A stretch of DNA of 51,100 nt from positions 1 to 51,100 of the forward strand of contig CAZQUJ010000001.1 in the NCBI GenBank assembly GCA_964596605.1. The letters run 5' to 3'. Both the position numbers and the translations under genes were made by a program. The stretch is from an uncultured Candidatus Saccharibacteria bacterium. Lineage in GTDB: Bacteria > Patescibacteriota > Minisyncoccia > Phycocordibacterales > UBA9973. A model generated the notes under the pieces. That model saw only the letters and a list, made by a program, of their open reading frames with translations. It made no database searches and had not been told where the DNA came from. This document shows, piece after piece, positions 1,175 to 39,323 of the stretch (its first letter is position 1; every line of letters begins with the position of its first letter).

Positions 1175-1193
1175 TCATGTTAATTAATTATTC

Positions 1194-2300: not shown

Positions 2301-2409
2301 TGTCTGTTTCAATTTGGTTGCTATAGTCATGATTTAGTCGCTTTTCTCCTTTGACAGCAAGGCTTTTTGTCTGTCCTATAAAGAATAATTTAAACACGGA
2401 TTTTAATCC

Positions 2410-2438
2410 TTGCAAAGGGGTCTCCTTTTGTCTATACT
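2410..2438 (+). promoter_or_regulatory. sigma70-like promoter candidate for paralogue 3 and the liv operon (TTGCAA-17 nt-TATACT)
   Basis: ttgcaa at 2410-2415, a 17-nt spacer, and tatact at 2433-2438, about 40 nt upstream of ATG 2480. A weaker look-alike module (ttgaca...tataaa) lies about 55 nt further upstream. Confidence 0.35.
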
Positions 2439-2479
2439 TTAAGAGTATGTGGACTGTTTATTAATTTAATCTTTTTATC

Positions 2480-4473: not shown

Positions 4474-4474
4474 G

Positions 4475-5344: not shown

Positions 5345-5347
5345 ATT

Positions 5348-6085: not shown

Positions 6086-6086
6086 A

Positions 6087-8804: not shown

Positions 8805-9911
8805 ATGAAGATCGGAATAGTTGGATTGCCAAATGTAGGGAAAAGCACACTTTTTAACGCTCTAACAAAAAAGGGGGTTCCTTCGGAGAACTATCCTTTT
8901 TGTACTATTGATCCTTCTGTTGGAATTGTGGCTGTTCCAGATGAAAGACTTTGGAAATTATCAGATTTCTCTAAATCAGCTAAAACCATACCTGCTGTTA
9001 TAGAGTTTGTTGATATCGCTGGACTAGTAAAAGGGGCTTCAAAAGGGGAAGGATTGGGTAATAAATTTTTGGCAAATATTAGAGAGGTTGATGCTATTTT
9101 AGAAATGGTTAGAATTTTTCCTGTTAAAACAGAAAAGACTAATGAAATAATTCATGTCTATGGGAATATTGATCCTTTAAGAGATATTGAGGTTATAAAC
9201 CTAGAATTAATTTTAGCTGACTTAGAAACTGTAGCCAAAAGAAGAACTAATCTTTCTCATGATATAAAGATGAATAGCAAGGATGCAATTATGGAAGATA
9301 AAGCTCTTGCTCGTTTGGAGTTGGCTTTTGGAAAAGCCGAAATGGCTAACACTGTACCTTTTGATGAAAAAGAATTAGAAAAAATTAAAATGTTAAATCT
9401 TTTAACCATGAAGCCATTTATCTATGGTTTAAATAAAAGAAGTGGAGGTGGAAACTTAAACGAAACAGATCCGGAGACATTTAAAAATATAACGGAACAT
9501 ATTAAAAGTAAGGATTCTTCTTTTGTTATAATTGATGCCAAGATAGAAGATGAATTGAAAGATTTTGAAGGAGAAGAAAAAGAAATGTTCAGAAAAGAAA
9601 TGGGTGGAGAAGATGATGGGATAGATAAATTAATTAAAGAGTGTTATGACTTACTCGGGTTGGAGACATATTTTACTACAGGAGCTGATGAGTCTAGGGC
9701 GTGGACAATAAAAAAGGGAAGTACCGCTCCAGTTGCAGGGATGGCTATTCACTCAGATTTTCATGACAAATTTATCAGAGCTGAGGTTATAAACTGGCAA
9801 GAACTATTGGATGCAGGAAATTATGTTGAAGCTAGGGCTAAAGGAAAAATTAGAACGGAAGGAAAGGAGTATATAGTTTGTGATGGAGATGTTGTGGAGT
9901 TTAAAATATAA
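8805..9911 (+). CDS. ychF: ribosome-binding ATPase YchF (Obg-like GTPase family)
   Basis: MKIGIVGLPNVGKSTLFNALT P-loop, YPFCTIDP, DIAGLVKGASKGEGLGNKFL, and a C-terminal TGS-like GKEYIVCDGDVVEFK. Confidence 0.92.
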   Translation: MKIGIVGLPNVGKSTLFNALTKKGVPSENYPFCTIDPSVGIVAVPDERLWKLSDFSKSAKTIPAVIEFVDIAGLVKGASKGEGLGNKFLANIREVDAILEMVRIFPVKTEKTNEIIHVYGNIDPLRDIEVINLELILADLETVAKRRTNLSHDIKMNSKDAIMEDKALARLELAFGKAEMANTVPFDEKELEKIKMLNLLTMKPFIYGLNKRSGGGNLNETDPETFKNITEHIKSKDSSFVIIDAKIEDELKDFEGEEKEMFRKEMGGEDDGIDKLIKECYDLLGLETYFTTGADESRAWTIKKGSTAPVAGMAIHSDFHDKFIRAEVINWQELLDAGNYVEARAKGKIRTEGKEYIVCDGDVVEFKI

Positions 9912-9915
9912 AAAA

Positions 9916-10866
9916 ATGGTAGACATTGGGGTTATATTTATTTTAGAAAATAAGGGTAAGATCCTAATACAACAAAGAGATAAAAATTGTAAATTTTTCC
10001 CTTTTTCCTGGTGTATTCCCGGTGGTGGTAAAGAGAAGGGGGAAAGCTACAGACAAACACTTAAAAGAGAAGTTAAAGAAGAGTTTAATATAGATTTAGA
10101 AGATAGACAGTGTAAATATATGTTTGATTTTCCTCAAAAAGGGAATAGAGTATATATTTGTCATCTTTTGGGAGAACAAAAACCAAAATTGGGTGAGGGT
10201 ATGGATTTAGATTGGAAGACAATAGAGGAATTAGAAAAAATGCATCTTGGTTTTAATCAAGAAAACCTAATTTGTTTAATAAAAAATAAACTTATGCAAA
10301 ACAATTGGAAAAAAGCTGAAGAGTTTTTAAAAAATGATGGAGTTGTAGTGTTACCAACAGATACTCTCTATGGAATTATTGGAAGTGCTTTGTCTAAAAA
10401 GGCAGTTAGAAAAATATATGATATTAAAGGAAGAGACAAAACAAAACCTTTCATTGTTCTAATAAATTCCATTTCACAATTGAAAGTTTTTGGCATAAAG
10501 ATAAACGAAGAGCAGGCCAAAATTTTGAAAAAATTTTGGCCTGGAAAAGTTAGTGTTGTTTTGCCTTGTAACCTAAAGAAATTTGAGTATCTTCATTTGG
10601 GAGGAAATGGTATAGCTTTTAGAATGATTGGCAAAAGAAACAGAAACCTTTTTAACATAATATCTTCGGTTGGCCCGTTGGTTGCTCCAAGTGTTAATAG
10701 GCAAGGAGAAAAACCAGCTGAGACAATCAAAGAAGCTGAAGGATATTTTTCAGAGAAAATACAATGCTATGTTAATGTTGGCAAAATAACATCAAAACCA
10801 TCAACTTTAATTAAACTAGTTGGAGATGAGATTATAGTTTTAAGACAAGGAGAAGTAAAAATTTAG
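9916..10866 (+). CDS. Nudix hydrolase domain fused to an L-threonylcarbamoyladenylate synthase (TsaC/YrdC) domain
   Basis: The N-terminal half has a Nudix box, GGGKEKGESYRQTLKREVKEEFNI. The C-terminal half has YrdC/TsaC motifs VVVLPTDTLYGIIGSA, KGRDKTKPFIVLI and APSVNRQGEKPA. I take ATG 9916 as the start, because ATG 9880 lies inside ychF. Confidence 0.8.
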   Translation: MVDIGVIFILENKGKILIQQRDKNCKFFPFSWCIPGGGKEKGESYRQTLKREVKEEFNIDLEDRQCKYMFDFPQKGNRVYICHLLGEQKPKLGEGMDLDWKTIEELEKMHLGFNQENLICLIKNKLMQNNWKKAEEFLKNDGVVVLPTDTLYGIIGSALSKKAVRKIYDIKGRDKTKPFIVLINSISQLKVFGIKINEEQAKILKKFWPGKVSVVLPCNLKKFEYLHLGGNGIAFRMIGKRNRNLFNIISSVGPLVAPSVNRQGEKPAETIKEAEGYFSEKIQCYVNVGKITSKPSTLIKLVGDEIIVLRQGEVKI

Positions 10867-11442: not shown

Positions 11443-14028
11443 ATGAAAAAATACGAACATTTAAAAATAGAAAAAAGATGGCAAAAAAAATGGCAAACCT
11501 CTGGTGTATATAAAACATCAGCTAATTACAAAAAACCTAAAATGTATGTCCTGGATATGTTTCCATATCCTTCAGGAGTAGGTCTTCACGTTGGGCACCC
11601 ACGAGGATATATAGGAAGTGATGTTTATGCTAGAAAAAAAATGATGGAAGGATATAATGTTCTTCACCCTATGGGTTATGATGCTTTTGGATTGCCAGCT
11701 GAGCAATATGCATTGGAACATAAAATACATCCAAGAAAAGCAGTTGAAGAAAATGTTAAAACTTTTGAAAGACAACTTTCTATGATAGGTCTTTCATATG
11801 ATTGGGATAGAAAAGTAAACACAACAGATCCAAAGTATTATAAATGGACTCAATGGATTTTCTTGCAGATATATAATTCTTGGTTTGATAATTCTAAACA
11901 AAAGGCAAGACCAATAAAAGAACTAGAAGAAATATTTGAGAAAAAGGGGAATGAAGAAGTGGATGCTACTTGTAGTCCCGATGTTAAAATATTTAAATCA
12001 TCAGAATGGAAAGAATTTTCTAAAAAAGAAAAGCATGATATTTTAATGTCATATCGTTTAGCATATGAAGGTTATAGTGAAGTAAACTGGTGTCCGGAGC
12101 TTGGAACCGTTTTGGCTAATGATGAAATACTTAATGATGATAAAGGAAATTTGGTTTCAGAAAGAGGTAGTCATCCCGTAGAAAAGAAAAAAATGCGTCA
12201 GTGGTTTATGAGAATTACAGCTTATGCTGATAGGCTTTTAGAAAATCTTGAAGATTTGGATTGGAGTGATCATATAAAAGAAATTCAGAAGAACTGGATT
12301 GGTCGTTCTGAAGGAGCAGAAATTATTTTTAAAATTAAAAACAATAAAGAACAGATAAAAGTCTTTACCACACGAGCAGATACTTTATTTGGTGTGACTT
12401 ATGTTGTCTTAGCTCCGGAACATGATTTAGTTCAAAAATTAAAAAAAGATATCTCAAACTGGGGGGAAGTAGAAAAGTATATTAATAGTTTAAAAAATAA
12501 ATCGGAAGAAGATAGGGTTTCAACCGAAAAGGAAAAAACAGGAGTAGAACTTAAGGGAATCAAAGCTATTAATCCAGCAAACAGCGAAGAAGTTTCTGTT
12601 TGGATTGCTGATTATGTTTTAGCTACTTATGGTACAGGTATGGTTATGGCGGTACCAGCTCATGATGAAAGAGACTGGGCTTTTGCCAAGAAATATAATT
12701 TACCAATAAAAGTGGTGATAGAATATCCAAAAGATTATCCTACAGATAAACCATATACAGAATATGGTATTGTAATTAACTCAGAAGGGATTCCATCGGC
12801 TAATGGTCTTTTGAGCCAAGATGCCATGCTTGAAATTACAGAAGAATTGGAATACAGAGGACAAGCCAAATCAGTTGTTAAATACCGAATGAGAGATGCT
12901 ATTTTTGCTCGTCAGAGATACTGGGGGGAACCAATTCCTATAAAGCACAATCCTGATGGAACTATTACTCCACTTCAAGAAAAAGATTTACCACTAGAAT
13001 TACCTAAGGTTAAATCATATACAATTACAGGCACAGGGGAGTCACCACTGGCTTCTGTCAAAAGTTGGACAAAGGAAGGATATGAGACAAACACCATGCC
13101 TGGCTGGGCAGGATCTTCTTGGTATTTTATACGATACATGGATCCTAAGAATAGTAAAGAGTTTGCTAAAAGAGAATCAATAGATTATTGGAACCAAGTA
13201 GATATGTATGTTGGAGGACAAGAACATGCAACAGGGCATTTACTATATTCTCGTTTTTGGACAAATTTCTTGTATGATATTGGTAAATTACCCTTTGAGG
13301 AACCATTTAAGAAAATGAAGAATCAAGGAATGGTTATAGCTTCTGATGGACGAAGAATGAGTAAGAGGTGGGGAAATGTTGTTAACCCCGATGACATAGT
13401 TAAAACATATGGAGCTGATACATTGCGAATTTATGAAATGTTTATGGGTCCATTTGATCAAATGCTTCCTTGGTCTACCGAAAGCATAATTGGTTCTCGT
13501 CGTTTCTTGGAAAAAGTTTGGAGAGTTGGACAAATAGTTTTAGAATCTAAACCTAAAAAAACTAATCCTGAAACAGAAATTGTTTTGCATAAAACAATTA
13601 AGAAAGTTACAGAGGATATTGAAAGTTTTTCTTTCAACACGGCTATTTCATCTATGATGATTTTGGTTAATGTTTTAGAAAAAACAGACAATATAAAGGT
13701 TTCAGACTTTCTAAAATTCTTACAAATACTTTGTCCTTTTGCTCCACACATAACAGAAGAAATATCTTCTTTACTAGGACAAAAGAAGAGTCTAATCAGA
13801 AATGCTTGGCCAACTTGGGATGAAGATAAAATTGAAGATGAAAAAATTAAAATAGCTGTTCAGGTAAATGGAAAGGTTCGTTCTCTAATTGAGATAGACA
13901 AAGAAGCCAAAGAGGAAGAAGTTAAAAAGATAGCCCTAGGTGATTCAAATGTCAAAAAATGGTTGGAAAATAAGGACATAAAAAGATTTATTTATGTTCC
14001 TAGTCGGGTTGTTAATATCGTGGTATAG
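11443..14028 (+). CDS. leuS: leucyl-tRNA synthetase
   Basis: MKKYEHLKIEKRWQKKWQ N-terminus, PYPSGVGLHVGHPRGY (HIGH region), KMSKRWGN (KMSKS), and CP1 editing and anticodon-binding regions. The track ORF start at 11302 is an upstream extension that overlaps the opposite-strand gene. Confidence 0.95.
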   Translation: MKKYEHLKIEKRWQKKWQTSGVYKTSANYKKPKMYVLDMFPYPSGVGLHVGHPRGYIGSDVYARKKMMEGYNVLHPMGYDAFGLPAEQYALEHKIHPRKAVEENVKTFERQLSMIGLSYDWDRKVNTTDPKYYKWTQWIFLQIYNSWFDNSKQKARPIKELEEIFEKKGNEEVDATCSPDVKIFKSSEWKEFSKKEKHDILMSYRLAYEGYSEVNWCPELGTVLANDEILNDDKGNLVSERGSHPVEKKKMRQWFMRITAYADRLLENLEDLDWSDHIKEIQKNWIGRSEGAEIIFKIKNNKEQIKVFTTRADTLFGVTYVVLAPEHDLVQKLKKDISNWGEVEKYINSLKNKSEEDRVSTEKEKTGVELKGIKAINPANSEEVSVWIADYVLATYGTGMVMAVPAHDERDWAFAKKYNLPIKVVIEYPKDYPTDKPYTEYGIVINSEGIPSANGLLSQDAMLEITEELEYRGQAKSVVKYRMRDAIFARQRYWGEPIPIKHNPDGTITPLQEKDLPLELPKVKSYTITGTGESPLASVKSWTKEGYETNTMPGWAGSSWYFIRYMDPKNSKEFAKRESIDYWNQVDMYVGGQEHATGHLLYSRFWTNFLYDIGKLPFEEPFKKMKNQGMVIASDGRRMSKRWGNVVNPDDIVKTYGADTLRIYEMFMGPFDQMLPWSTESIIGSRRFLEKVWRVGQIVLESKPKKTNPETEIVLHKTIKKVTEDIESFSFNTAISSMMILVNVLEKTDNIKVSDFLKFLQILCPFAPHITEEISSLLGQKKSLIRNAWPTWDEDKIEDEKIKIAVQVNGKVRSLIEIDKEAKEEEVKKIALGDSNVKKWLENKDIKRFIYVPSRVVNIVV

Positions 14029-20956: not shown

Positions 20957-21031
20957 GCCCCCGTAGTTCAATGGATAGAACAGTTCCGTCCTAAGGAATA
21001 GATGTAGGTTCGATTCCCGCCGGGGGCACCA
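20957..21031 (+). tRNA. tRNA-Arg (anticodon CCT), CCA encoded
   Basis: Acceptor stem gcccccg/cgggggc, D-arm gttcaatggatagaac, anticodon loop gtcctaa, T-loop ttcgatt, ending acca. Confidence 0.88.
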
Positions 21032-21040
21032 ATTTAACTT

Positions 21041-21102
21041 TCGAATATTTTGAACGAAACGTCTGTTCACGCCTTGGCCGCGCTCGACAGGCTCGCGCGG
21101 GG
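21041..21102. repeat. inverted repeat, left copy (IR-L)
   Basis: tcgaatattttgaacgaaacgtctgttcacgccttggccgcgctcgacaggctcgcgcgggg. By hand alignment it matches the reverse complement of 27571-27634: a shared TCGAA end, a 2-nt indel, then 46/55 identities. Confidence 0.85.
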
Positions 21103-21108
21103 AAAAAC

Positions 21109-21189
21109 CAAAAATTCCCTATCCTTTTTATTTGTGCTCCCAACACCCTCGGCCACAAGGTGGAAAGTCTGAAAGGAAGGGAATTTTTG
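21109..21189 (+). other. long-range stem-loop (12-bp perfect stem, 57-nt loop) followed by a T-rich tract
   Basis: caaaaattccct (21109-21120) is the exact reverse complement of agggaatttttg (21178-21189). tttttgtt follows downstream. It lies between IR-L and the XRE gene. Confidence 0.4.
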
Positions 21190-21286
21190 TTTTTGTTGCT
21201 ACTGCTTCATATTTACATTTGGATTATTTTTTGCTACCATAGTAATAAGTTAACCAACCTGAATAGTCTTTACTTTAATTATAGCA

Positions 21287-21508
21287 ATGTATTACAATGC
21301 CTGCTGGCAAAAATTAACAATTGCCAATAATATAAAGAAATACCAACAAAAGCTCGGCATTTCTCAAAACCGTCTCTCCAAAATTGCCGATGTTGCTTAT
21401 AATACGATTATTAAAATTGAGTTAGGCGGTAGTCAAAACCCGACTATTGATACCTTGACCAAAATAGCTAAAGCGCTCGATGTTAGTGTAGATGAGTTAA
21501 TAAGATAA
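21287..21508 (+). CDS. XRE-family helix-turn-helix transcriptional regulator
   Basis: 73 aa. IKKYQQKLGISQNRLSKIADVAYNTIIKIELGGSQNPTIDTLTKIAKALDVSVDELI is a canonical HTH_3 (Cro/C1) domain. Confidence 0.85.
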   Translation: MYYNACWQKLTIANNIKKYQQKLGISQNRLSKIADVAYNTIIKIELGGSQNPTIDTLTKIAKALDVSVDELIR

Positions 21509-21513
21509 ATTTT

Positions 21514-22587
21514 ATGAATAAATCGAAAAAAATAAAAGTTGCACTTGTTGGCATAGGAAATTGCGCAAGTTCTCTTGTCCAAGGTGTCTCATTTTACTCA
21601 CAAGCAGAAAATGTAACGATTGGGTTAATGCACCCAAATTTTGCCGGATTTAATGTGTCTGATATTGAGTTTGTCGCCGCGTTTGATGTTGATAAAAGAA
21701 AAGTGGGGAAAGATCTCGCAGAAGCAATATTTCAAAAACCTAATTGCACAACGAAGTTTCAAGAAGTTGGGCTATTAAATATTAAGGTATTAAAGGGACA
21801 TGTTTTAGATGGTGTAGCACCTCATATGCAAGAATATTTTATTGTCGATGATAAACAGGAACCAGTTGATGTTGCGCAAGAATTACACAAATGCGGTGCA
21901 GAAATGCTCATCTCTTATTTACCAGTGGGTAGTGCTGAAGCGTCAAGATTTTATGCTAACGAAGCAATAAGGGCGGGTGTTGGATTTATTAACGCCATTC
22001 CTGAATTTATTTGCTCTAAGTCAGAATGGATTGCCAAATTTAAAGAAAAAGGGATACCCTGTGCTGGCGATGATATAAAATCTCAATTTGGTGCGACTAT
22101 CCTGCATAGAACTGTGACAAGATTAATTGAAGATCGTGGGCATAAGATTGATAATACATACCAATTAAATATCGGTGGAAATACAGATTTTTTAAACATG
22201 AAAGATGAAAATCGACTCAGTTCAAAGAGATTATCAAAAACGAATGCGGTAACCTCAATACTTGGAGAAAAAGAGTTTGGAGTTCGAATCGGTCCAAGCG
22301 ATTATATACCCTATCTTAATGACAATAAAATTTGCTATATAAATGTTAAGGGTAAGCAGTTTGGAGGATTACCTTTTGAATTAGATATTAAATTGAGTGT
22401 TGAAGACAGCCCGAATAGTGCTGGGGTTATGGTAGATGTTATCAGGGCCATGAAGGTTGCTATTGATCGTGGAGTTTCAGGAAATTTAGGGGCAATAAGC
22501 GCATATTATTTTAAATCACCAGAAGTTCAATATAGAGACGATATTGCCAGGACGATTGTTGAAGATTTCATCAATTTTAAGCAATAA
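21514..22587 (+). CDS. ino1: myo-inositol-1-phosphate synthase (inositol-3-phosphate synthase, bacterial/archaeal short type)
   Basis: The N-terminal Rossmann motif KVALVGIGNCASSLVQGVSFY is characteristic of short MIPS enzymes. Also present: GDDIKSQFGATILHR, NIGGNTDFLN, and SKRLSKTNAV (the conserved SK...SK region). Confidence 0.8.
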   Translation: MNKSKKIKVALVGIGNCASSLVQGVSFYSQAENVTIGLMHPNFAGFNVSDIEFVAAFDVDKRKVGKDLAEAIFQKPNCTTKFQEVGLLNIKVLKGHVLDGVAPHMQEYFIVDDKQEPVDVAQELHKCGAEMLISYLPVGSAEASRFYANEAIRAGVGFINAIPEFICSKSEWIAKFKEKGIPCAGDDIKSQFGATILHRTVTRLIEDRGHKIDNTYQLNIGGNTDFLNMKDENRLSSKRLSKTNAVTSILGEKEFGVRIGPSDYIPYLNDNKICYINVKGKQFGGLPFELDIKLSVEDSPNSAGVMVDVIRAMKVAIDRGVSGNLGAISAYYFKSPEVQYRDDIARTIVEDFINFKQ

Positions 22588-22593
22588 AGTTTT

Positions 22594-23814
22594 ATGATTT
22601 ACGTACACAAAAAAGAATTATCAGAGTCAGAGTATGAGTTCGTAGAACGTAAGGGCATTGGACATCCAGACACCTTATCTGATGCTCTTGCCGAGTTTTT
22701 ATCAGTTAAATACTCAAACTATACTCTGAAAAATTTTGGTGCAGTATTACATCATAACTTTGATAAAGTTGGGCTACTCGGTGGTGCTTCATTTGTAAAA
22801 TTTGGCGAGGGATACCTAACAAAACCGATAAGAGTATTATTAAATGGTCGCGCTTCAACAAAATTTGGAGATAAAAATATCCCAGTTGAGGACTTGTTAA
22901 AATCTTGGGCAGGCGAGTTTCTCTTAAACAAATTTAGAAATCTAATAAAAGAAAGTGACTTAGAGATCCATTACAATTTAAGTACACAAAGCAGTCCTGG
23001 TAAAACCGAAGAATTTAAGTCAACGAATACCCCCCGAAAATTTTGGTTTGAACCAAGAAATTTTGACGATCTTCCGGAAATTAAAAAACTATTTTCTAAT
23101 GATACTTCCTTGGGTGTGGGTTATGCTCCTTATTCTAAGTTAGAGAAACTTGTTTTAGATATTGAAGGAGTCCTAAACTCTGATAGTTTCAAAAAGGATC
23201 ATCCGTGGATAGGATCTGATATTAAAATAATGGGTACGAGGCACGGCCATCAGTTTGGTGTGACTTTATGTATACCACAAATAGCCAACTATGTGCATTC
23301 AGTTGAGGAATATAGACAAAATTTAGAGCAGGCCAAACAATTTATTTTCAAGATTTCTCAAAATATTGGAATAAATGGCCTCGAACTATCGTGTAATACT
23401 CGTGATAATTTAGAAACAGGGGAACTTTATCTTACAGCGATCGGTTCATCGATAGAAAGTGGTGACGAAGGTTTGGTTGGCAGAGGAAATAGAGTAAACG
23501 GGATAATTTCGCCCACGAGACTTATGAGTATGGAAGGGGCTTGTGGTAAAAATCCTGTTTATCATATTGGTAAGATTTACTATGTAGCCGCCAACGAGAT
23601 TAGTAAAAAAATTTTTGAAAAGTTTGGAATTGCGAATGAAGTCTCTTTAATTAGCCAAAGTGGTCGAGATTTACTTGATCCATGGAAGACATATGTTACT
23701 TTATACAATTCAAATATAGGTGAAGAACAGGTTCGGATTTTTGTTGAAAATGAACTAAGGAATATTCCGGAAATAACTAAAAACCTATTAGAGGATAAAT
23801 TAAGGCTATTTTAA
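22594..23814 (+). CDS. archaeal-type S-adenosylmethionine synthetase (MAT, AdoMet_Synthase family)
   Basis: FVERKGIGHPDTLSDALAE...FGAVLHHNFDKVGLLGGAS...VLLNGRAS closely parallels the archaeal MAT N-terminus (VERKG.GHPD..CD....FG..LHHN.D.V.LVGG....LL.GRA). It does not resemble bacterial MetK. Confidence 0.8.
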   Translation: MIYVHKKELSESEYEFVERKGIGHPDTLSDALAEFLSVKYSNYTLKNFGAVLHHNFDKVGLLGGASFVKFGEGYLTKPIRVLLNGRASTKFGDKNIPVEDLLKSWAGEFLLNKFRNLIKESDLEIHYNLSTQSSPGKTEEFKSTNTPRKFWFEPRNFDDLPEIKKLFSNDTSLGVGYAPYSKLEKLVLDIEGVLNSDSFKKDHPWIGSDIKIMGTRHGHQFGVTLCIPQIANYVHSVEEYRQNLEQAKQFIFKISQNIGINGLELSCNTRDNLETGELYLTAIGSSIESGDEGLVGRGNRVNGIISPTRLMSMEGACGKNPVYHIGKIYYVAANEISKKIFEKFGIANEVSLISQSGRDLLDPWKTYVTLYNSNIGEEQVRIFVENELRNIPEITKNLLEDKLRLF

Positions 23815-23818
23815 TGTT

Positions 23819-24943
23819 ATGGAAAAGATGCTTAATCAAGAAAAAGAAATAACAAGACTGGAATATTTAACTACCCATGTTGGACTAATTAAACAACTTG
23901 ATGGAAAATATTTGCTTGCTGAAAGCGTGTATTCAGAAGACATTCAAAATGAAAGTTCGTTAGAACACATACCCTTAATTAAGTCAGATGAAGTGATTAG
24001 GCCAGAGGGAGATACTACCATGCTTACTTCAGCTGGTATCCAGCATCTTGAAACTCTTGAACGTGACAAAATTAATTTAGAAAGTGAGAAGTTTAAAATT
24101 GCACAACCAGTTGTTCGTAGTCAGTTTATGGATAAAATCAAAGAAGGTTATTCAACGGCTTTTATAGATGAATCTGTCGTTCAACTCGGAGTATCTGATG
24201 AAGTTTTTTTTGGTATGTGTAAGCAAATGATCATTGATTCATTGAACCATGACGAAGATATACAAAAATATTATCTAACAATTGATACCCAAGATGATCG
24301 TTGGGGTCAAAAAAAGTTCACCAAATTAGTCATCACTTTATATTATGGCGGGAACGAAGTATCAGAAGGTGTGTATATAGATAAATTTCCTAAAGTTAAT
24401 GGGCAGACTGTTTCAGTTGCCGAGATAACCCACGGTGCTGAAAGATATAATTGGATTCACAGAGAAAATAAAGACCAACCATATTTTATTGATTTTGAAG
24501 AATTCTACCATTCTGATAATAAAGATAATGTTGCAAAAATTATAGATCCCATCAGAACAGCTACATTGATGATCATGCAAGGGGTTGTTCCATCCCATAA
24601 GGATCCTGGGTTTAGATTAAGACAGCTGATTAAAAGATTTGTGGAAAGAAACACCGAGACTTCTTTTTCTGAAGATAGACTTTTGGATTTATCATATGAT
24701 TTTTGGATAAGAAATAGTGTTGAAGGAATTGTTGATAAAATTGGGGTTCGTGAATCGTTAAAAAAAGAAATGATGCGTGCTCAAAATGTATATATTGTTG
24801 GCCACATAGAAAGAGATATGAACAAAAAAATTAAGGTTGATGTGAATTTAAGTACAGATGAATTTATTAAAAGAATCTATTCTTCATCTCCAGAAGAGAT
24901 TATTGAGATAGTAAAAAGTATTAATTTAAAAAAATATGAGTAA
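23819..24943 (+). CDS. stand-alone, diverged alanyl-tRNA-synthetase catalytic-core paralogue (class IIc aaRS-like; candidate amino-acid ligase)
   Basis: 374 aa. Three stretches align with AlaRS landmarks. GDTTMLTSAGIQHLE matches NDPTLLFTNAGMNQFK. IAQPVVRSQ matches TSQRCVRAG. IIDPIRTATLMIMQGVVPSHKDPGFRLRQLIKRFVER matches [37 protein letters not shown]. No tRNA-recognition, editing or C-Ala domains are present. Confidence 0.6.
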   Translation: MEKMLNQEKEITRLEYLTTHVGLIKQLDGKYLLAESVYSEDIQNESSLEHIPLIKSDEVIRPEGDTTMLTSAGIQHLETLERDKINLESEKFKIAQPVVRSQFMDKIKEGYSTAFIDESVVQLGVSDEVFFGMCKQMIIDSLNHDEDIQKYYLTIDTQDDRWGQKKFTKLVITLYYGGNEVSEGVYIDKFPKVNGQTVSVAEITHGAERYNWIHRENKDQPYFIDFEEFYHSDNKDNVAKIIDPIRTATLMIMQGVVPSHKDPGFRLRQLIKRFVERNTETSFSEDRLLDLSYDFWIRNSVEGIVDKIGVRESLKKEMMRAQNVYIVGHIERDMNKKIKVDVNLSTDEFIKRIYSSSPEEIIEIVKSINLKKYE

Positions 24944-25613
24944 GCTTTTTTTAAGTGGCGGTGGTGATGTAGATATGTCGTATTCGTTTGACAGCCTATT
25001 CTTTGATTCATTGCCACAGGCTGCGAATATACTTTATATTCCCGTTGCTATGGCGACCACTATGACTAAGACAGAGGTAGCTTTCGATTGGTTTTCAAAA
25101 TTGATTTCACGCCATTCAAGCAACAACAGATACCTAGATTTTACGATATGGAATATCGGGGATTCTTTGCCTATTTTGCATAATTATGATGCTGTATATG
25201 TTGGTGGTGGAAATACATATAGACTCTTGATGGCATTAGAAAAATCAGGAATGTTCGATGCTTTGAAAAAATATATCAGAAATGGTGGTATTTACTATGG
25301 TGGAAGTGCTGGTGCTGTGATTGTTGGTAAAAACTTACGAACTGTAGAGGAAGAAAATTTAGAAAATTATTCAAAGCATGATGGTATGAATTTAGTTGAA
25401 GATCTCTCTATATTTCCGCATTTTTCTGATAGTGAAGAGCAAAAAAATACCATTAGGAACATTTGTGGCAAATATTCCTTAAAGGTAGTCGCACTTCCCG
25501 AAAATTCTGGTCTTATTCTCGATACACAAAGTATAGGTGTTCACGGTAATATATATTTATATGAACAAGAGAAAGAAACTATTTTTTATACATCTGGGCA
25601 AATTATCAAGTAG
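24936..25613 (+). CDS. peptidase S51 family protein (dipeptidase E/cyanophycinase-like, class I glutamine-amidotransferase-like fold)
   Basis: YVGGGNTYRLLMALEKSGMFDALKKYIRNGGIYYGGSAGAVIVG contains the GGGNT and GxSAG nucleophile motifs of the S51 family. It overlaps the previous gene by 8 nt. Confidence 0.7.
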   Translation: MSKLFLSGGGDVDMSYSFDSLFFDSLPQAANILYIPVAMATTMTKTEVAFDWFSKLISRHSSNNRYLDFTIWNIGDSLPILHNYDAVYVGGGNTYRLLMALEKSGMFDALKKYIRNGGIYYGGSAGAVIVGKNLRTVEEENLENYSKHDGMNLVEDLSIFPHFSDSEEQKNTIRNICGKYSLKVVALPENSGLILDTQSIGVHGNIYLYEQEKETIFYTSGQIIK

Positions 25614-26763
25614 CTCCGGTCATACAGCGCGATTACGCTATGAATTAAAGGACATTAGCAAGATAGCAGAAGTTTCGATTCTGTCTTTAGCAAATGAGTC
25701 TGATCAATCTTTCCCTGGTAAATATCCGAATATACATTTCTATGTTTTACCAATTAAGTTCAATGGCTGGAAAGTTGTTAATTTGAGTCGTGTTGTAGAA
25801 CAGATAGATAGAATAATCAGCTTTTGTAAGCCAGATATTGTTATTTTGTGCATTGAAATTTGGGATTTAATTTTAGAATTGCATAAAAAAATATCTGACA
25901 AAGTAGCATTTTGTGCCATATGTCACGCAATGCCATTCTTAGGTTCACCCTTAAATCCAACAAAATCCTTTGAATCAGATGTAAGGAATTTTACTAATAA
26001 GCAAATACCAAAATACAGAAAAAACTATATTATCAAACATTACAAAGAATTTTCGAAGGTTATAAATTCTGGTTTATTAATTGCAAATAATGCATCTGTT
26101 GCTTTCTATTTTAAAAATTATTTCCCGAGATCATTGTTTTGGAAACAAGTGCCTCATGTTACGGTTGATCCACTAAGAATGCCCAAAACTTTAGATATTA
26201 GCTATGATTTTTGTTATATGGCGAGAATGGAGAAAGGAAAGGGGGTGGAATATCTGCAAGATTTGTTTGGTAAAATTTCAACCAAACTGGGTAGGAAAAT
26301 TAGGGTGGCACTCATGGGCAGGACAGATGATAAGTACTCACAAGAAAAACTCAGGAGCCTGCTTGAAAGTAAAAGTGAAGCTTACTCAATTCGGTTTTTT
26401 GGCTGGGCGGATGATAGAACTAAAGCTAAAGTATTAAGTAAAAGCGGTTGTTTTATTTACCCATCAATTTACGATAATTTTCCGACAGTAGTTAATGAAG
26501 CCATGGCTCATGGTTTGCCTGTGGCAATGTGGAATAATCTTTTTTATAGAGTTAATTATTCTGGCATAAAGTCTGTATCTGTCGCTATTCCTTTTAGTGT
26601 TGAACATTTAGCTTCGGTGGCTGTGAATTTATTAAAAAGAAAGTCTACTCTAAGTCATCATTCTATAGAATATATAAAGAAAAGTGGTGGCTCCAGATCA
26701 GTTGCTAAAGATGATCTCATGCTGTTTGATGAGATAATTAAACATAATGAAAGAAATAAATAG
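25561..26763 (+). CDS. family 4 (GT-B) glycosyltransferase
   Basis: The N-terminus is LFFIHLGKLSSSSGHTARLRYE. The C-terminal donor-binding region is GCFIYPSIYDNFPTVVNEAMAHGLPVA (E-x7-E type). I take ATG 25561 as the start (the track gives 25537). Either start overlaps the 3' end of the S51 gene, by 53 nt from 25561. Confidence 0.75.
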   Translation: MNKRKKLFFIHLGKLSSSSGHTARLRYELKDISKIAEVSILSLANESDQSFPGKYPNIHFYVLPIKFNGWKVVNLSRVVEQIDRIISFCKPDIVILCIEIWDLILELHKKISDKVAFCAICHAMPFLGSPLNPTKSFESDVRNFTNKQIPKYRKNYIIKHYKEFSKVINSGLLIANNASVAFYFKNYFPRSLFWKQVPHVTVDPLRMPKTLDISYDFCYMARMEKGKGVEYLQDLFGKISTKLGRKIRVALMGRTDDKYSQEKLRSLLESKSEAYSIRFFGWADDRTKAKVLSKSGCFIYPSIYDNFPTVVNEAMAHGLPVAMWNNLFYRVNYSGIKSVSVAIPFSVEHLASVAVNLLKRKSTLSHHSIEYIKKSGGSRSVAKDDLMLFDEIIKHNERNK

Positions 26764-28129
26764 TAACTTTGAAAAATTTTTTCCGAAAGAGAATGTTATT
26801 GTAATGCTCCACGCTCATGCTGATGATGAGTCATTTTTGTCTGCCGGTACTATAAATGAATTTATAGTGCGTGGTTATAATATTTTACTAATTTACTTAG
26901 CTGCAGGTCTTGTTGAAAATGAACAAGAGACACTTCTCAGGCAAAAAGAGCTTTCTATGGCATTAGAAACACTAGGTGCACATAATGTAAAGTTTCTTAA
27001 ATATTGCGAACCAAAATACAAAGGGAGTGGCGCCCCTCTTTATTTGCAATCAATACGAGAAGTATCAAACGAAATAATTAAATTTCTTAATAAAGAAAGA
27101 ATAAAAAAATATATACTTTTTTCATACGATAAAAATGGTGGTTATGGGAATAAGGATCATTTAGTAGTACATAAGGTAGGAAGATATCTGTTTAAAAAAT
27201 CATCGGTGATTAGTTCACTATTTGAGGTAACTATTTCAAGGGATATGTATACAGATTGGTTTTCAAAAGAATCGGGTAGGGTTTCTGAAACTTATTTACC
27301 AAAACTAAGTTATTGGTCTACAGAATTTGGACTAACAGACGAAGAAATCAATTACATATACGTACTTAATTCTAAACAAATTTGGTTAAAGAAAAAAGCT
27401 CTTATTAAACACGTCTCGCAAATAAAGAATACAGAATTTCCTCTGTCTCTTACTAATACCGATTTTATAAAATTGTTTGGTAGAGAATATCTTGCGTACG
27501 TTAATAGATCGATTCTGCAAGATATCGTAAATTTCACCGAAGCCACCACAGGACAAATACAAAGCAAGTGCCCCACGCGAGCTTGTCGAGCACTGGCGAG
27601 ACGTGGTCAGACGTTTCGTTCAAAATGCGTTCGAGCAGAGTCGTATAATTCTACAAATATGAATGAAAAAGATTTTAATCTAAGTATTTTTGATGGAAAG
27701 GGATGGTCAAAAATATCTAAATCTCTGTTTGAAATAGAAAAAGAGTGTTTTTTAGATTTGTCTTTTTCTTGGAAAGATTTTTGTAATTATTTTTCTAATC
27801 CTAAAATAATTGCAGTAATATTAAGATATAAAAATGACATTATTGGATTCTCCTTTGGTTTTCCTTCTGGTGATGATTCTTTTTTTATTTACGATACTGC
27901 TATAAAAAAAGAATTTCAGGGCAGGGGATTAGTTTCTCTAATTATGAATTTCTTGGAAAAGAAACTAAAGGAGGATGGCTACAAATATATAGAAAGGGAA
28001 GCTGATGTTGATAATGGGTATGCTGATAAAATTCGCAGACATTATAAAGGAAGAATAATAGAGGAAGGAATTCCTCATAATTCTATTTATTCAAAAGGAA
28101 AACAGGTATTTTTTAAGATAGAGATTTAG
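26747..28129 (+). CDS. PIG-L/LmbE-family N-acetylglucosaminyl deacetylase (aa 1-~270), whose frame reads through IR-R into the downstream GNAT gene
   Basis: VIVMLHAHADDESFLSAGT (the AHPDDE-type zinc motif) and YGNKDHLVVHK (the HxDH-type motif). Residues 275-296 (CPTRACRALARRGQTFRSKCVR) are encoded by IR-R. There is no stop codon before the GNAT domain, so the 460-aa ORF is either a real fusion or a read-through artefact. Confidence 0.7.
   Translation: MKEINSNFEKFFPKENVIVMLHAHADDESFLSAGTINEFIVRGYNILLIYLAAGLVENEQETLLRQKELSMALETLGAHNVKFLKYCEPKYKGSGAPLYLQSIREVSNEIIKFLNKERIKKYILFSYDKNGGYGNKDHLVVHKVGRYLFKKSSVISSLFEVTISRDMYTDWFSKESGRVSETYLPKLSYWSTEFGLTDEEINYIYVLNSKQIWLKKKALIKHVSQIKNTEFPLSLTNTDFIKLFGREYLAYVNRSILQDIVNFTEATTGQIQSKCPTRACRALARRGQTFRSKCVRAESYNSTNMNEKDFNLSIFDGKGWSKISKSLFEIEKECFLDLSFSWKDFCNYFSNPKIIAVILRYKNDIIGFSFGFPSGDDSFFIYDTAIKKEFQGRGLVSLIMNFLEKKLKEDGYKYIEREADVDNGYADKIRRHYKGRIIEEGIPHNSIYSKGKQVFFKIEI
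27571..27634. repeat. inverted repeat, right copy (IR-R)
   Basis: ccccacgcgagcttgtcgagcactggcgagacgtggtcagacgtttcgttcaaaatgcgttcga, which is the reverse complement of IR-L with about 84% identity over the ungapped 55-nt core. Confidence 0.85.
27659..28129 (+). CDS. GNAT-family N-acetyltransferase (possible independent cistron from an internal ATG)
   Basis: The C-terminal 156 aa of the long ORF carry an acetyl-CoA motif-A-like segment, IKKEFQGRGLVSLIMNFLEKKLKEDGYKYI (Q/RxxGxG/A). TATAAT at 27644-27649 lies 9 nt upstream of ATG 27659. The composition drops back to flank-like AT-richness. Confidence 0.6.
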   Translation: MNEKDFNLSIFDGKGWSKISKSLFEIEKECFLDLSFSWKDFCNYFSNPKIIAVILRYKNDIIGFSFGFPSGDDSFFIYDTAIKKEFQGRGLVSLIMNFLEKKLKEDGYKYIEREADVDNGYADKIRRHYKGRIIEEGIPHNSIYSKGKQVFFKIEI

Positions 28130-28460: not shown

Positions 28461-28533
28461 GCTTGGGTAGCTCAGTTGGTAGAGCGCTCCCCTGAAGAGG
28501 GATAGGTCGGCAGTTCAATTCTGCCCCCAAGCA
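28461..28533 (+). tRNA. tRNA-Phe (anticodon GAA)
   Basis: Acceptor stem gcttggg/cccaagc, D-arm tagctcagttggtagagc, anticodon loop ctgaaga, T-arm ggcagttcaattctgcc. No encoded CCA. Confidence 0.9.
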
Positions 28534-28545
28534 CAGAATAAAAAA

Positions 28546-28570
28546 CACCTCCGATTAAAATCGGAGGTGT
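28546..28570. terminator. bidirectional intrinsic terminator (tRNA-Phe and convergent hsp20)
   Basis: acacctccgat-taa-atcggaggtgt is a perfect 11-bp stem. An A-run lies on its 5' side and a T-run on its 3' side, so it can terminate either strand. Confidence 0.8.
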
Positions 28571-28573
28571 TTT

Positions 28574-29071
28574 TTAGATTGATTTAATTTTTAATTTAGT
28601 TTCTCTGTTTTTGTCTAGTTTAGGAAGTTTGATAATCAACAATCCATGTTTCTCTATCGCTTCAGCCTCTTCTGGATCAACTTCTTCTGGAAGGGAAATA
28701 GTTCTAGAAAATGAACCCCAATAAAGTTCTTTAACGAAATAGTTATCTTTTTGGATAGACTGATTTTCTTCTCTCTTTCCTTTGATGGTAACCATATCTC
28801 TGGTTATTGTTATATTTAAATTATCTGGTTGAACTCCAGCTACCATTGTTTGAACGATAATATCAGAAGGAGTTTGATACAAATCAACAGTTAGTTCAGC
28901 TTCCTGTTCTTCTTCCCATTTTTCTTCTTTTTCTACTTCTATATTTTTTGATTCACTGACAGATTTAGAGTTTTTTTTGCTACTTGATTCCTCGTATAGA
29001 TCATCATCGAGTTCGTCTTCGTCAACTCTAATATTTCCTGTAAGTCTTTCTAAAAATGATTTTTTCTTCAT
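28574..29071 (-). CDS. small heat-shock protein (Hsp20/alpha-crystallin family)
   Basis: The alpha-crystallin domain runs LTVDLYQTPSDIIVQTMVAGVQPDNLNITITRDMVTIKGKRE...FSRTISLPEEVDPEEAEAIEKHGLLIIKLPK. The N-terminal region is acidic. Confidence 0.85.
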   Translation of the reverse strand: MKKKSFLERLTGNIRVDEDELDDDLYEESSSKKNSKSVSESKNIEVEKEEKWEEEQEAELTVDLYQTPSDIIVQTMVAGVQPDNLNITITRDMVTIKGKREENQSIQKDNYFVKELYWGSFSRTISLPEEVDPEEAEAIEKHGLLIIKLPKLDKNRETKLKIKSI

Positions 29072-32047: not shown

Positions 32048-33232
32048 CTACAAACTTAAATTTCCATTAGCATTAAGTCCCCCAACTCTCTTTTTACTTT
32101 TAGATTGAAAATATCCAGCTATGGCAATCATTAATCCATTATCTCCACTTAGTTTTTTGGTGGGGAAGTGAACATTGATATCTTTATCAACACTAGCTCT
32201 CATGGTTTCTTGCAGGAAATCATTAGCTGAAACACCACCTCCAACTATTAAAGTTTTTGCCTTGTATTCTTTCAAAGCTCTTTTGGTTTTAGAGACTAGA
32301 ACTTCCACAACTGAATCTTCAAATTCTCTAGCAATTTTTTGTTTAACTTTTATATCTTCTAGCACCTTAGGATTTTCATCTTTCATTTTTTTAATTGTGT
32401 ACAAGACAGCGGTTTTTAGCCCAGAAAAAGAAAAATCATAATCTTTAGAATTTATCATAGGGCGAGGAAAAGAAATGTCAGATATATTTTTTTCTTCTCG
32501 TTCTACTTTAGCTAGTTTAGAAATTTGAGGACCCCCAGGATATGGTAGCTCTAGCATTCTAGCTACTTTGTCAAAAGCTTCTCCCGAAGCGTCATCTCTT
32601 GTTTTACCTATCTTCTTATATTTCATCCAGTCTTTAATTAATACAAGTTCAGTGTGTCCGCCAGAAATGAGTAATGATAATATAGGGAATATTTTTTTAT
32701 CTTTTTTGACGACAAATACATCTTTGTCTTTTGGATAAATAGAAAAAATATGCCCCTCCATGTGATTAACCGGAATGATTGGAATGTTTAAATATGTTCC
32801 TAGAGCTTTAGCAAAACTAATTCCAACCCAAAGAGCTGGCTCTAATCCTGGACCCACAGTTACGGCTATGGCATCTACTTTAGGTTTTTCTATTTTTTTC
32901 ATGAAGTCTATGAAGCTATTAAAGAGTTCTCCCTCTCTTTCTAAAATTTTATTTATTTTCCTTTTTGTTTTATCGTCAGTTTCGGATGTTTTCTTTTTCT
33001 CTTTATATAGTTTTGCTTCTTTAAGAGCTTTTTCTAATACTCCAACGATGTTTTTAGCATGTTCTCTTTTGGCCATCATTGGAAAAACTCCGCCATATTG
33101 TGTGTGGATGGCTATTTGGGAAGAAACCTCATTACCTAGTATTTTAAAAGATGTCTCCTTTGTGTTTTCTGTTGCTTTAACTATAGCGATGGCGGTTTCG
33201 TCACACGATGTTTCGATTGATAGTATTTTCAT
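32048..33232 (-). CDS. tsaD: tRNA N6-adenosine threonylcarbamoyltransferase TsaD (Kae1/Gcp family) with an internal insertion
   Basis: MKILSIETSCDETAIAIV, VTVGPGLEPALWVG, VNHMEGH, SGGHTELV, DDASGEAFDKVARML and VGGGVSANDFL. A Lys/Glu-rich insertion of about 40 aa lies between the first His region and the GPGL motif. Confidence 0.9.
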   Translation of the reverse strand: MKILSIETSCDETAIAIVKATENTKETSFKILGNEVSSQIAIHTQYGGVFPMMAKREHAKNIVGVLEKALKEAKLYKEKKKTSETDDKTKRKINKILEREGELFNSFIDFMKKIEKPKVDAIAVTVGPGLEPALWVGISFAKALGTYLNIPIIPVNHMEGHIFSIYPKDKDVFVVKKDKKIFPILSLLISGGHTELVLIKDWMKYKKIGKTRDDASGEAFDKVARMLELPYPGGPQISKLAKVEREEKNISDISFPRPMINSKDYDFSFSGLKTAVLYTIKKMKDENPKVLEDIKVKQKIAREFEDSVVEVLVSKTKRALKEYKAKTLIVGGGVSANDFLQETMRASVDKDINVHFPTKKLSGDNGLMIAIAGYFQSKSKKRVGGLNANGNLSL

Positions 33233-38708: not shown

Positions 38709-39323
38709 ATGTATATGAAAATGTTGCTTGAGTTTGATTACAAAAAAGCTACACAGGCGATAAATTATCTCGCAAAAAAAGAAGGTGGAACGATAGATAA
38801 ACTTAAACTTATAAAGTTGGTTTATTTTGCAGATAGGTATCACCTAAGACGTTATGGTCGTCCTGTTATAAACGATGCTTATTTTGCTATGCAACTTGGC
38901 CCAGTTGGATCATCAGTAAAAGATATTGCGGAATTTTCTGATTTTTTGGATGACAGTGAACGTGAATATGCTACTAATTTTATTGGTCGTGGTGGAGATG
39001 CAAATACAGTAGTATCGATTGCAGAGGTTGATAATAAAATCTTTTCTGAAAGTGAAATTGAGGCGCTTGATTTTTCTTATAAAGAATTTGGTGAAAACGA
39101 TGCTTTAGAATTAGTAAATATTACTCATCGTTACCCAGAATGGAAAAAATTTAAGAATGCCCTAGATTCAAAAGAAACAACTCGTGAAGCTATGTCATAT
39201 AAGGATTTTTTTGATAATCCTAGTAATAATGTAAAAGATAAGTTTTCAATAGATCAAAATATTCTTTCTGCTTCAAAAGAATTGTTTGAAGATAATTATA
39301 AGATTGCTGAATATTGGAAGTAA
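38709..39323 (+). CDS. Panacea (DUF4065/SocA-like) domain protein, putative antitoxin
   Basis: ATQAINYLAKKEGGTIDKLKLIKLVYFADRYHLRRYGRPVINDAYFAMQLGPVGSSV matches the DUF4065 core pattern (KLxKLxYFA...HL...G.P......Y.A...GPV). The real start may be ATG 38715 or 38721. Confidence 0.7.
   Translation: MYMKMLLEFDYKKATQAINYLAKKEGGTIDKLKLIKLVYFADRYHLRRYGRPVINDAYFAMQLGPVGSSVKDIAEFSDFLDDSEREYATNFIGRGGDANTVVSIAEVDNKIFSESEIEALDFSYKEFGENDALELVNITHRYPEWKKFKNALDSKETTREAMSYKDFFDNPSNNVKDKFSIDQNILSASKELFEDNYKIAEYWK

Follow-up and report, generated by a model that had tools for sequence, protein, structure and literature searches.

A mobile gene cassette of Patescibacteria that unites a truncated alanyl-tRNA synthetase paralogue, an archaeal-type S-adenosylmethionine synthetase and an S51 hydrolase is a candidate pathway for a small aminoacylated glycoside

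A contig of an uncultured Candidatus Saccharibacteria bacterium (GenBank assembly GCA_964596605.1, contig CAZQUJ010000001.1, positions 1 to 51,100; this whole stretch of 51,100 nucleotides is called the window) carries a compact cassette of six enzyme genes bounded by inverted repeats. One of its products is AlaL, the name used here for a truncated protein resembling alanyl-tRNA synthetase (AlaRS), which is 374 amino acids long in the window. AlaL is accompanied by an archaeal-type methionine adenosyltransferase (MAT), a synthetase of S-adenosylmethionine (SAM), and by a PepE-like serine hydrolase of family S51, and these three proteins are the invariant core of the system. A myo-inositol-3-phosphate synthase (MIPS), a GT4 glycosyltransferase and a PIG-L/LmbE de-N-acetylase are optional modules. 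We propose, with a probability of roughly 0.42, that its enzymes make a small aminoacylated glycoside in a short biosynthetic pathway; the product is probably an undescribed small molecule.

Profile searches of the window upheld all six enzyme gene calls, and with them the six identities that had been claimed in a preliminary description made from the sequence alone. The genes lie on the plus strand and overlap or are closely packed. An Ino1-type MIPS (21514-22587; PF01658, E 2.8e-33) is followed by MAT (22594-23814; PF01941, E 4.8e-106, 355 bits against a cut-off of 27), AlaL (23819-24943; PF01411, E 7.5e-5, together with the profile and fold evidence given below), the S51 hydrolase (24936-25613; PF03575, E 1.5e-25, 90.5 bits against a cut-off of 23.9), a divergent retaining GT4 enzyme (25561-26763; PF00534, E 1.3e-15, and PF13692) and the PIG-L/LmbE de-N-acetylase proper (26747-27520; PF02585, E 1.6e-14), whose open reading frame (ORF) continues to 28129. 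As the preliminary description had stated, neither an inositol monophosphatase (IMPase) nor a CDP-alcohol transferase is present among the scanned window ORFs of at least 150 amino acids, which cover 51 kb of the genome. Promoter and terminator scans for operon boundaries gave counts equal to the shuffled expectation, and an Rfam search for riboswitches and known RNAs at a permissive threshold yielded only tRNAs and sub-threshold noise.

The conservation of the cassette was studied in 68 loci gathered from look-ups, a GTDB genome scan and a metagenome scan, which were annotated with hidden Markov models built from the cassette proteins and dereplicated into 41 AlaL clusters at 90% identity; the denominators that follow are assessable clusters. 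MAT lies immediately upstream of AlaL in 35/35 clusters, and the S51 gene adjoins AlaL in 33 of 34. The preliminary description had left the roles of these two proteins unexplained, and they turn out to be the invariant partners. Some glycosyltransferase is found near AlaL in 25/31 clusters; the type present in the window accounts for 20/31, and a second type of about 350 amino acids, here called c5, for 9/31. PIG-L was found in 14 of 20 assessable clusters and MIPS in 16 of the 41, all clusters being counted in this case. The co-occurrence of these genes, which this survey of 41 dereplicated clusters documents outside the window, is far above chance, and it defines MAT, AlaL and S51 as the invariant core and MIPS, GT4 and PIG-L as optional modules. 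The fullest version, in the order MIPS-MAT-AlaL-S51-c5 glycosyltransferase-GT4-PIG-L, occurs in loci L053-L056. Other recurrent accessories are HisJ-type PHP phosphatases, Cof-type HAD phosphatases and IMPase, and further ones are radical-SAM/SPASM enzymes and a class I methyltransferase.

Gene fusions link the same proteins. AlaL is fused to a c5 glycosyltransferase in P0130 and P0159, to S51 in P0175, and to a class I methyltransferase-fold domain in P0171 (589 amino acids, with MTS and TRM5/TYW2 matches), and these fusions of AlaL to its partners elsewhere argue that the cassette genes are functionally coupled. Some enzymes of the class I methyltransferase fold transfer aminocarboxypropyl groups or cyclise SAM. 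All carriers of the cassette are uncultured; they are mainly Patescibacteria, with others among the Alpha- and Gammaproteobacteria, Chloroflexota and Clostridia, and one metagenome-assembled genome (MAG) labelled Omnitrophota. No tRNA gene was found inside the cassette in 43 loci.

The derivation of AlaL from AlaRS is only weakly visible in the single sequence, whose PF01411 match extends over 47 residues. A profile of 25 AlaL homologues matches E. coli AlaRS with an E value of 2.8e-9, and an hhalign comparison with 74 homologues gives a probability of 98.2% over AlaRS residues 6-321. A Foldseek search with an AlphaFold2 (AF2) model of AlaL (pLDDT 88) places only catalytic fragments of AlaRS at the top (E 1e-14 to 1e-10, TM about 0.6). 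The model spans just the aminoacylation and helical tRNA-recognition domains, with neither an editing nor a C-terminal domain. Profile, hhalign and Foldseek results thus all place the protein with class II AlaRS, which agrees with the preliminary description that had derived it from AlaRS and not from cysteinyl-tRNA synthetase (CysRS). AlaL is far from a housekeeping enzyme in score, reaching 22 bits against the alaS model TIGR00344, whose cut-off is 457. A word-based search returned 37 homologues among 5.8 billion clusters, and an exhaustive profile search returned 200 representative clusters at E<=1e-30, with lengths of 320-430 amino acids for nearly all matches listed; from these two figures we conclude that the AlaL family is real but rare.

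To compare active sites, 74 family members were mapped onto E. coli AlaRS, whose residues are numbered here in what we take to be the literature numbering, one below the gene numbering. The equivalents of the motif-2 Arg69 (R100 in AlaL), the motif-3 Arg242 (R209) and the adenine-stacking Phe (F115) are conserved in 74/74 sequences, and that of Trp170 (W162) in 72 of 74. The position of Asp235, which binds the amino group, is acidic in all 74 (D in 67, E in 7; E202 in the window), and that of Gly237 is glycine in 62/74 (T204 in the window). The position of Asn212, a conserved residue of the alanine site in AlaRS, carries D or E in 62 of the 74 AlaL sequences, with E183 in the window. The motif 3 signature 'D-x-G-x-G-x-E-R' is present, and a helical-domain motif, 'GV.PS(N/H)..G(Y/F)RLR..KR', resembles the AlaRS motif 'GVMPSNENRGYVLRRIIRR'. 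We infer from these residues that AlaL binds ATP and forms the adenylate of a small alpha-amino acid, and it is predicted to be an ATP-dependent amino-acid ligase; the ligase-type role put forward in the preliminary description is likewise favoured by the retention of the adenylate-forming residues. That SAM might occupy this pocket by mimicking the aminoacyl adenylate was considered and appears unlikely, the phosphate-binding arginines being invariant. Compared with canonical AlaRS, represented by the catalytic fragment AlaRS441, AlaL shares the fold (TM about 0.6), the motif 2 Arg, motif 3, the Trp170 equivalent and the tRNA-recognition helix motif, whereas sequence identity is only about 14%, the editing and C-Ala domains are missing, Asn212 is replaced by Asp or Glu, and the gene resides on a mobile cassette with non-translational partners.

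The window MAT matches the enzyme of P. furiosus (E 1.6e-74) and falls below every NCBIfam equivalog cut-off (351 against 481). In P. furiosus MAT, SAM is contacted by H30, H59, N61, D141, L142, D198, Y268 and D280 (PMC8727953). The window protein shares six of these eight residues, and four do not vary among the cassette MATs (24/24). The pair D141/L142 corresponds to E139/E140 (about 23008-23013) in the window and to E or Y and E or N across the family, in a loop whose alignment is uncertain; the replacement could reflect altered substrate handling or a misaligned loop. Three MAT homologues of 60-66% identity on long contigs were sampled, and all three lie beside S51 and two of the three beside AlaL, so that this MAT clade is itself linked to the cassette. 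The S51 protein has the catalytic triad of its family, with Ser124 and His162 conserved in 22/22 sequences and Glu189 in 21/22, as well as the GGGN and GGSAG motifs. Its nearest solved structures are Lmo0363 and PepE, and with 70 bits it remains below the cut-off of 156 of the PepE (Asp-X dipeptidase) equivalog NF003642.

A variant at L036 (5937-8904) contains MIPS, MAT and S51 without AlaL, and MAT-S51 thus persists there without the AlaRS-like gene. A functional tie between MAT-S51 and the prolyl-tRNA synthetase of that locus was rejected, since the synthetase is canonical (540 bits against a cut-off of 437). Glycyl-tRNA synthetase, a glutamyl-tRNA synthetase-like protein and methionyl-tRNA synthetase, which neighbour the cassette in other loci, were taken as chance arrangements in compact genomes.

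Of the optional modules, MIPS is a close relative of M. tuberculosis Ino1 (1gr0; 376 bits, about 52% identity over 350 residues), in keeping with the MIPS call of the preliminary description, and reaches 431 bits against TIGR03450, under the equivalog cut-off of 638. The GT4 enzyme belongs to a small family of 35 proteins in the word-based search, which appears to be cassette-specific. Sequence and profile searches of the PDB gave no significant match for it and none to MshA; among the sequence-level matches is a weak one to PimA, a phosphatidylinositol mannosyltransferase (E 1.4e-3). In the AF2 model (pLDDT 90), the Foldseek neighbours are roughly equal and comprise the BH4 glucosyltransferase, BshA, MshA (TM 0.70), PimB', GlgM and SPS. 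The top structural neighbours are retaining GT4 enzymes with small soluble acceptors, and enzymes specific for lipopolysaccharide do not lead the ranking. The model is consistent with action on a small soluble acceptor, and it does not discriminate the acceptor class. In the clade comparison suggested in the preliminary description, the GT4 could not be placed with MshA, BshA or BtrM: sequence and profile gave nothing significant, and the structural ranking does not separate MshA, BshA and the others.

In the deacetylase the metal motifs HxDD and DH are invariant, and its profile finds MshB as the best solved match (E 1.4e-9), followed by archaeal diacetylchitobiose deacetylases and BshB1. MshB is thus the closest solved relative and the zinc motifs are intact, but the score of 45 bits lies below the cut-off of 224 of the MshB equivalog TIGR03445. 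The genes do co-occur elsewhere, and none of the outcomes that the preliminary description had held against its own proposal was found. Elsewhere in the family, the PIG-L proteins of L017 (10932-12221) and L020 (10804-12147), both labelled Gammaproteobacteria, have an extra C-terminal domain of about 170 amino acids. Its start, 'EIERKF', looks CYTH triphosphatase-like; Pfam and NCBIfam gave no match, and a CYTH domain here is a tentative lead. A similarly long PIG-L product of 410 amino acids is encoded in L034 (11250-12482). In L004 (12037-12735) and L005 only short remnants of GT4 and PIG-L are left, apparently pseudogenes, in a contig neighbourhood that looks proteobacterial; the surroundings of these two cassettes contain IMPase, an APH-family kinase and a radical-SAM/SPASM gene.

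The cassette resembles a non-autonomous transposable element with its cargo enclosed between inverted repeats, a feature that the preliminary description had overlooked. A left terminal repeat of 56 nt (21047-21102) is 84% complementary to a right one (27571-27626); the arms are unique in the window, and the number of matches expected by chance is 0. Beside the left repeat lies a hairpin-forming subterminal segment (21104-21194) with 17-nt arms that are 94% complementary. The preliminary description had placed the unit at 21514-28129; the six genes do lie inside this interval, but the true element spans 21047-27626 and adds the repeats and, upstream of MIPS, a plus-strand gene for an HTH_3 (Cro/C1-type) regulator (21287-21508; PF01381, E 3e-13), a homologue of which also precedes MIPS in L012. 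No transposase was found inside the element, whose contents are the HTH_3 gene and the six enzyme genes only. Immediately outside, a plus-strand gene for tRNA-Arg(CCT), detected with ARAGORN (20957-21031), adjoins the insertion point, and several other cassettes lie directly downstream of tRNA genes of varying identities.

Related copies support this picture. About 6 kb of the window (21505-27546) shares approximately 85% DNA identity with cassettes that lie between unrelated flanks in two MAGs, one of Saccharibacteria and one of Uhrbacteria, and the homology to L011 and L012 stops at about 27546. The same cassette is enclosed by perfect terminal inverted repeats of 219 nt in L040 (1768-1986 and 8548-8766), compared with which the window repeats are degenerate, and by perfect terminal repeats of at least 96 nt in L039 (1264-1359 and 7921-8016), where the contig end cuts them short. 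In L012 there is an inverted pair of 39 nt (5162-5200 and 11792-11830). The same subterminal hairpin, with arms of 17-36 nt, is found inside the repeats of L040 (1878-1971), L039 and L037 (2670-2763), and it might be a transposase-binding or regulatory site; window positions 21066-21216 share about 75% identity with end regions of L012 and, in inverted orientation, of L011. The flank downstream of the window cassette, which encodes a penicillin-binding protein (PBP), GreA, an aminoacyl-tRNA synthetase (aaRS), MraW, a further PBP and a Mur ligase, matches the flank of L006, whose own cassette is inserted elsewhere. A tblastn search with AlaL against plasmids and phages and a scan of IMG/VR for viral carriage gave no match.

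The right end of the element also explains an apparent additional domain. The preliminary description had noted a GNAT domain immediately downstream, which invites comparison with MshD, the GNAT acetyltransferase of mycothiol synthesis. The GNAT sequence does adjoin, but it is a gene of its own (27659-28129, plus strand; PF00583, E 8.8e-9 when the GNAT part was scanned alone) with its own ATG at 27659, beyond the right inverted repeat. At 27518-27520 the window reads CAA where L012 has TAA and L011 has TGA, and the PIG-L ORF in the window consequently runs through the right repeat into GNAT. Either a true mutation or a sequencing variant could account for the lost stop. GNAT, whose best NCBIfam match is a weak one to rimI, is nearby in no other cassette, and its position outside the repeats together with this absence removes it as an MshD analogue; the GNAT 'domain' of the deacetylase is a read-through artefact, and the gene is separate from the system.

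The gene identities, their linkage and the fusions are observed, and from them we infer the following substrates and order of steps. MIPS would make inositol-3-phosphate, onto which the GT4 enzyme would transfer N-acetylglucosamine (GlcNAc), and PIG-L would strip the acetyl group to free the amine. AlaL would then activate a small alpha-amino acid with ATP and load it onto the freed amine, as the counterpart of MshC in mycothiol synthesis. S51 could hydrolyse or transfer the aminoacyl bond in proofreading, turnover or release, and it might thereby substitute for the missing AlaRS editing domain or have a role like that of Mca. SAM from the dedicated MAT would be consumed stoichiometrically in the core reaction, as amino-acid source, acceptor or tailoring cofactor. 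This use of SAM is suggested because MAT is universal and dedicated, even in MAGs labelled Proteobacteria, a phylum whose members normally carry their own metK and alaS, and the accessory radical-SAM enzymes and methyltransferases occur too sporadically to account for it. The accessory phosphatases of other cassettes fit a sugar-inositol-phosphate intermediate, and the fusions of AlaL with glycosyltransferases point to a sugar substrate.

Several observations weigh against this proposal. At least a third of the loci lack MIPS, GT4 and PIG-L beside the core, the window cassette has no phosphatase, the GT4 can be assigned to no acceptor class by sequence, profile or structure, and the logic of mycothiol synthesis leaves the universal MAT and S51 unaccounted for. 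In addition, the tRNA-recognition motif of AlaL is kept and basic, and tRNA could still be a substrate or donor, as it is for AcmF, an AlaRS paralogue of ascamycin biosynthesis. Because the sugar genes are missing beside many cores, an acceptor made of glucosamine (GlcN) and inositol would serve only some members, the window included; and because the core occurs without MIPS, GT4 and PIG-L, GlcN-inositol would be a variable carrier and not the essence of the system. The aminoacylated inositol-glucosamine scaffold of the preliminary description is accordingly plausible in the window but cannot be the defining product of a system whose modules are optional, and the low-molecular-weight thiol that it had also suggested falls away, as nothing indicates a thiol or cysteine. 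It is conceivable, although rather unlikely, that the MAT-AlaL-S51 triad carries out a self-contained SAM-consuming chemistry of an aaRS paralogue, in which a SAM-derived amino acid is activated or SAM is aminoacylated. AlaL might activate a non-proteinogenic amino acid made from SAM, like azetidine-2-carboxylate (Aze) or 1-aminocyclopropane-1-carboxylate, and AlaRS binds Aze; or it might aminoacylate SAM itself as a mimic of the 3'-terminal adenosine of tRNA. S51 would then serve as the deacylase dedicated to this chemistry, with the sugar and inositol modules as swappable carriers, and the transposon-like element would spread the system among ultra-small bacteria.

It is unlikely, in our view, that the system modifies a macromolecule or envelope lipid instead of making a soluble metabolite, such as a GlcN-phosphatidylinositol-type or glycolipid anchor, a glycopolymer, or a tRNA or protein in the manner of GluQRS and EpmA. 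A GT4 and a PIG-L enzyme are also the first pair in the synthesis of glycosylphosphatidylinositol anchors (the logic of PIG-A and PIG-L), PimA is among the sole sequence-level PDB matches of the GT4 (weak, as given above), the basic AlaRS-like tRNA-recognition motif persists in AlaL, and several cassettes lack sugar genes altogether. Yet phosphatidyl-transferases, flippases and transporters do not recur beside the cassettes (membrane topology was not predicted), the structures ranked closest to the GT4 model are of enzymes that use soluble acceptors, no cassette contains a tRNA, and the accessory phosphatases suit soluble sugar-phosphate chemistry. The most interesting alternative, which we nevertheless consider quite unlikely, takes AlaL as an AcmF-like aminoacyl-tRNA-dependent transferase that would move alanine from Ala-tRNA(Ala), charged by the host AlaRS, to an adenosyl compound from MAT, SAM or a relative. 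An aminoacyl-nucleoside would result, for instance a toxin or signal resembling an aaRS inhibitor, with the sugar and inositol genes as decorations and S51 as a deacylating enzyme of self-protection or activation. AcmF is the sole characterised truncated AlaRS-like enzyme of the same two-domain architecture that we found, and it works on a 5'-modified adenosine together with the hydrolase AcmE; MAT, the invariant neighbour of AlaL, yields a 5'-substituted adenosine, replacements occur across the cassette family at two of the eight SAM contacts of MAT, and the motif of the tRNA-recognition domain is retained in AlaL. AcmF is, however, reported to be without most of the residues for ATP binding and activation and to depend on Ala-tRNA (PMC12945691), whereas the arginines of motifs 2 and 3 and the Phe are retained in 74/74 AlaL sequences. 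Exporters, resistance aaRS and tRNAs are likewise found in no cassette, and the AlaL-glycosyltransferase fusions suggest a sugar substrate.

Two further explanations were weighed. A role of the cassette in anti-phage defence or inter-bacterial conflict, with a toxic or signalling nucleotide or amino-acid derivative as product, would suit its mobility and patchy distribution, the location of one copy beside a recombinase/methylase island and a weak match of the GT4 to GT4-conflict (E 7e-4, below the cut-off); but none of the six proteins matches PADLOC, the searches of phages, plasmids and viral contigs found nothing, domains of a sensor, nuclease or effector type are absent from the cassette, and its gene content is that of a biosynthetic pathway, which makes this very improbable. 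Chance adjacency, in which AlaL would be half of a split housekeeping AlaRS, MAT an ordinary SAM synthetase and the other genes unrelated, is scarcely credible. Split AlaRS genes do occur in some ultra-small archaea, and compact contigs of the Patescibacteria type place housekeeping genes, aaRS included, beside the cassette. Against this, the three core genes stay together in several phyla (35/35 and 33/34 clusters), and the unit moves with its inverted repeats, showing about 85% DNA identity between different lineages of Patescibacteria. AlaL reaches only 22 of the 457 bits of the alaS cut-off, carries D or E at the conserved Asn212 position and is fused elsewhere to a glycosyltransferase, S51 or a methyltransferase, and no partner gene encodes the editing and C-terminal half.

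Literature searches found no description of this combination of genes, in agreement with the preliminary description, whose author was aware of none. The nearest precedent for an aminoacylated glycoside is the mycothiol pathway of Actinobacteria, in which Ino1, MshA, MshA2, MshB, MshC and MshD act and GlcNAc transfer, de-N-acetylation and N-aminoacylation follow one another. Both systems have an Ino1-type MIPS, a retaining GT4, an LmbE/PIG-L deacetylase and an aaRS paralogue as presumed ligase. The ligase of the cassette comes from class II AlaRS, however, whereas MshC comes from class I CysRS, and there is no MshC-type gene here; the GT4 and PIG-L score far under the MshA and MshB family cut-offs, the cassette element has no MshD-type GNAT, and the mycothiol pathway has no counterpart of the universal MAT and S51. 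The cassette's MIPS, GT4 and PIG-L are optional, nothing indicates cysteine or a thiol, and its genes sit on a mobile element, while those for mycothiol are scattered on the chromosome. Bacillithiol synthesis (BshA/BshB/BshC) and 2-deoxystreptamine synthesis (BtrM/BtrD) use the same pairing of GT4 and PIG-L on a small acceptor, and BshA is among the best structural neighbours of the cassette GT4. BshB models, in contrast, give the cassette PIG-L 18-19 bits against cut-offs above 180, relatives of BshC, 2-deoxy-scyllo-inosose synthase and aminotransferases were not seen beside the cassettes, and the MIPS points instead to an inositol acceptor. AcmF, compared by description, is like AlaL a stand-alone AlaRS paralogue with aminoacylation and tRNA-recognition domains only, engaged in small-molecule biosynthesis and linked to an adenosine-5' derivative and a partner hydrolase. 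It reportedly lacks the ATP-binding and activation residues that AlaL keeps, its partner AcmE is an alpha/beta hydrolase and not an S51 enzyme, and the ascamycin cluster is devoid of MAT, MIPS, GT4 and PIG-L. We rate the cassette as a putative aaRS-paralogue-dependent aminoacyl-glycoside pathway akin to that of mycothiol, with a new ligase family, a puzzling SAM/S51 core and a transposon-like vehicle.

The remainder of the window contains several other features. At 74-6791, a tandem array of three Peripla_BP_6 binding proteins precedes a branched-chain amino-acid type ABC importer, represented by two permeases and two ATPases. A single ORF at 9880-10866 combines a NUDIX hydrolase domain with a Sua5/YciO/YrdC domain, and TsaD is encoded on the minus strand at 32048-33232. 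Directly after a tRNA-Phe gene (28461-28534), a perfect palindrome of 18 nt with a T-rich tail (28539-28576) looks like a bidirectional terminator common to this tRNA gene and a convergent HSP20 gene. A SocA/Panacea antitoxin-domain protein (38709-39323) interrupts the otherwise conserved GreA-aaRS-MraW-PBP-Mur ligase block, and a protein of 1130 amino acids (45930-49322) has an N-terminal PPDK_N ATP-binding domain and, at its far C-terminus, a PEP-utilizers mobile domain, with about 700 unassigned residues between them.

Our findings suggest that hundreds of clusters of stand-alone AlaRS paralogues have been diverted from translation, a group in which AcmF is the only truncated AlaRS-like enzyme that our literature searches found to be characterised. 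The strict tie of AlaL to an archaeal-type SAM synthetase suggests undescribed SAM chemistry, and the compact cassette, with six enzymes in 6 kb, is amenable to direct heterologous expression. In Patescibacteria, which are usually seen as metabolically minimal, a dedicated pathway that moves horizontally would stand out. Redox buffer, solute, surface precursor and toxin are all conceivable roles of its product, and the pathway may be relevant to the epibiotic way of life of these bacteria.

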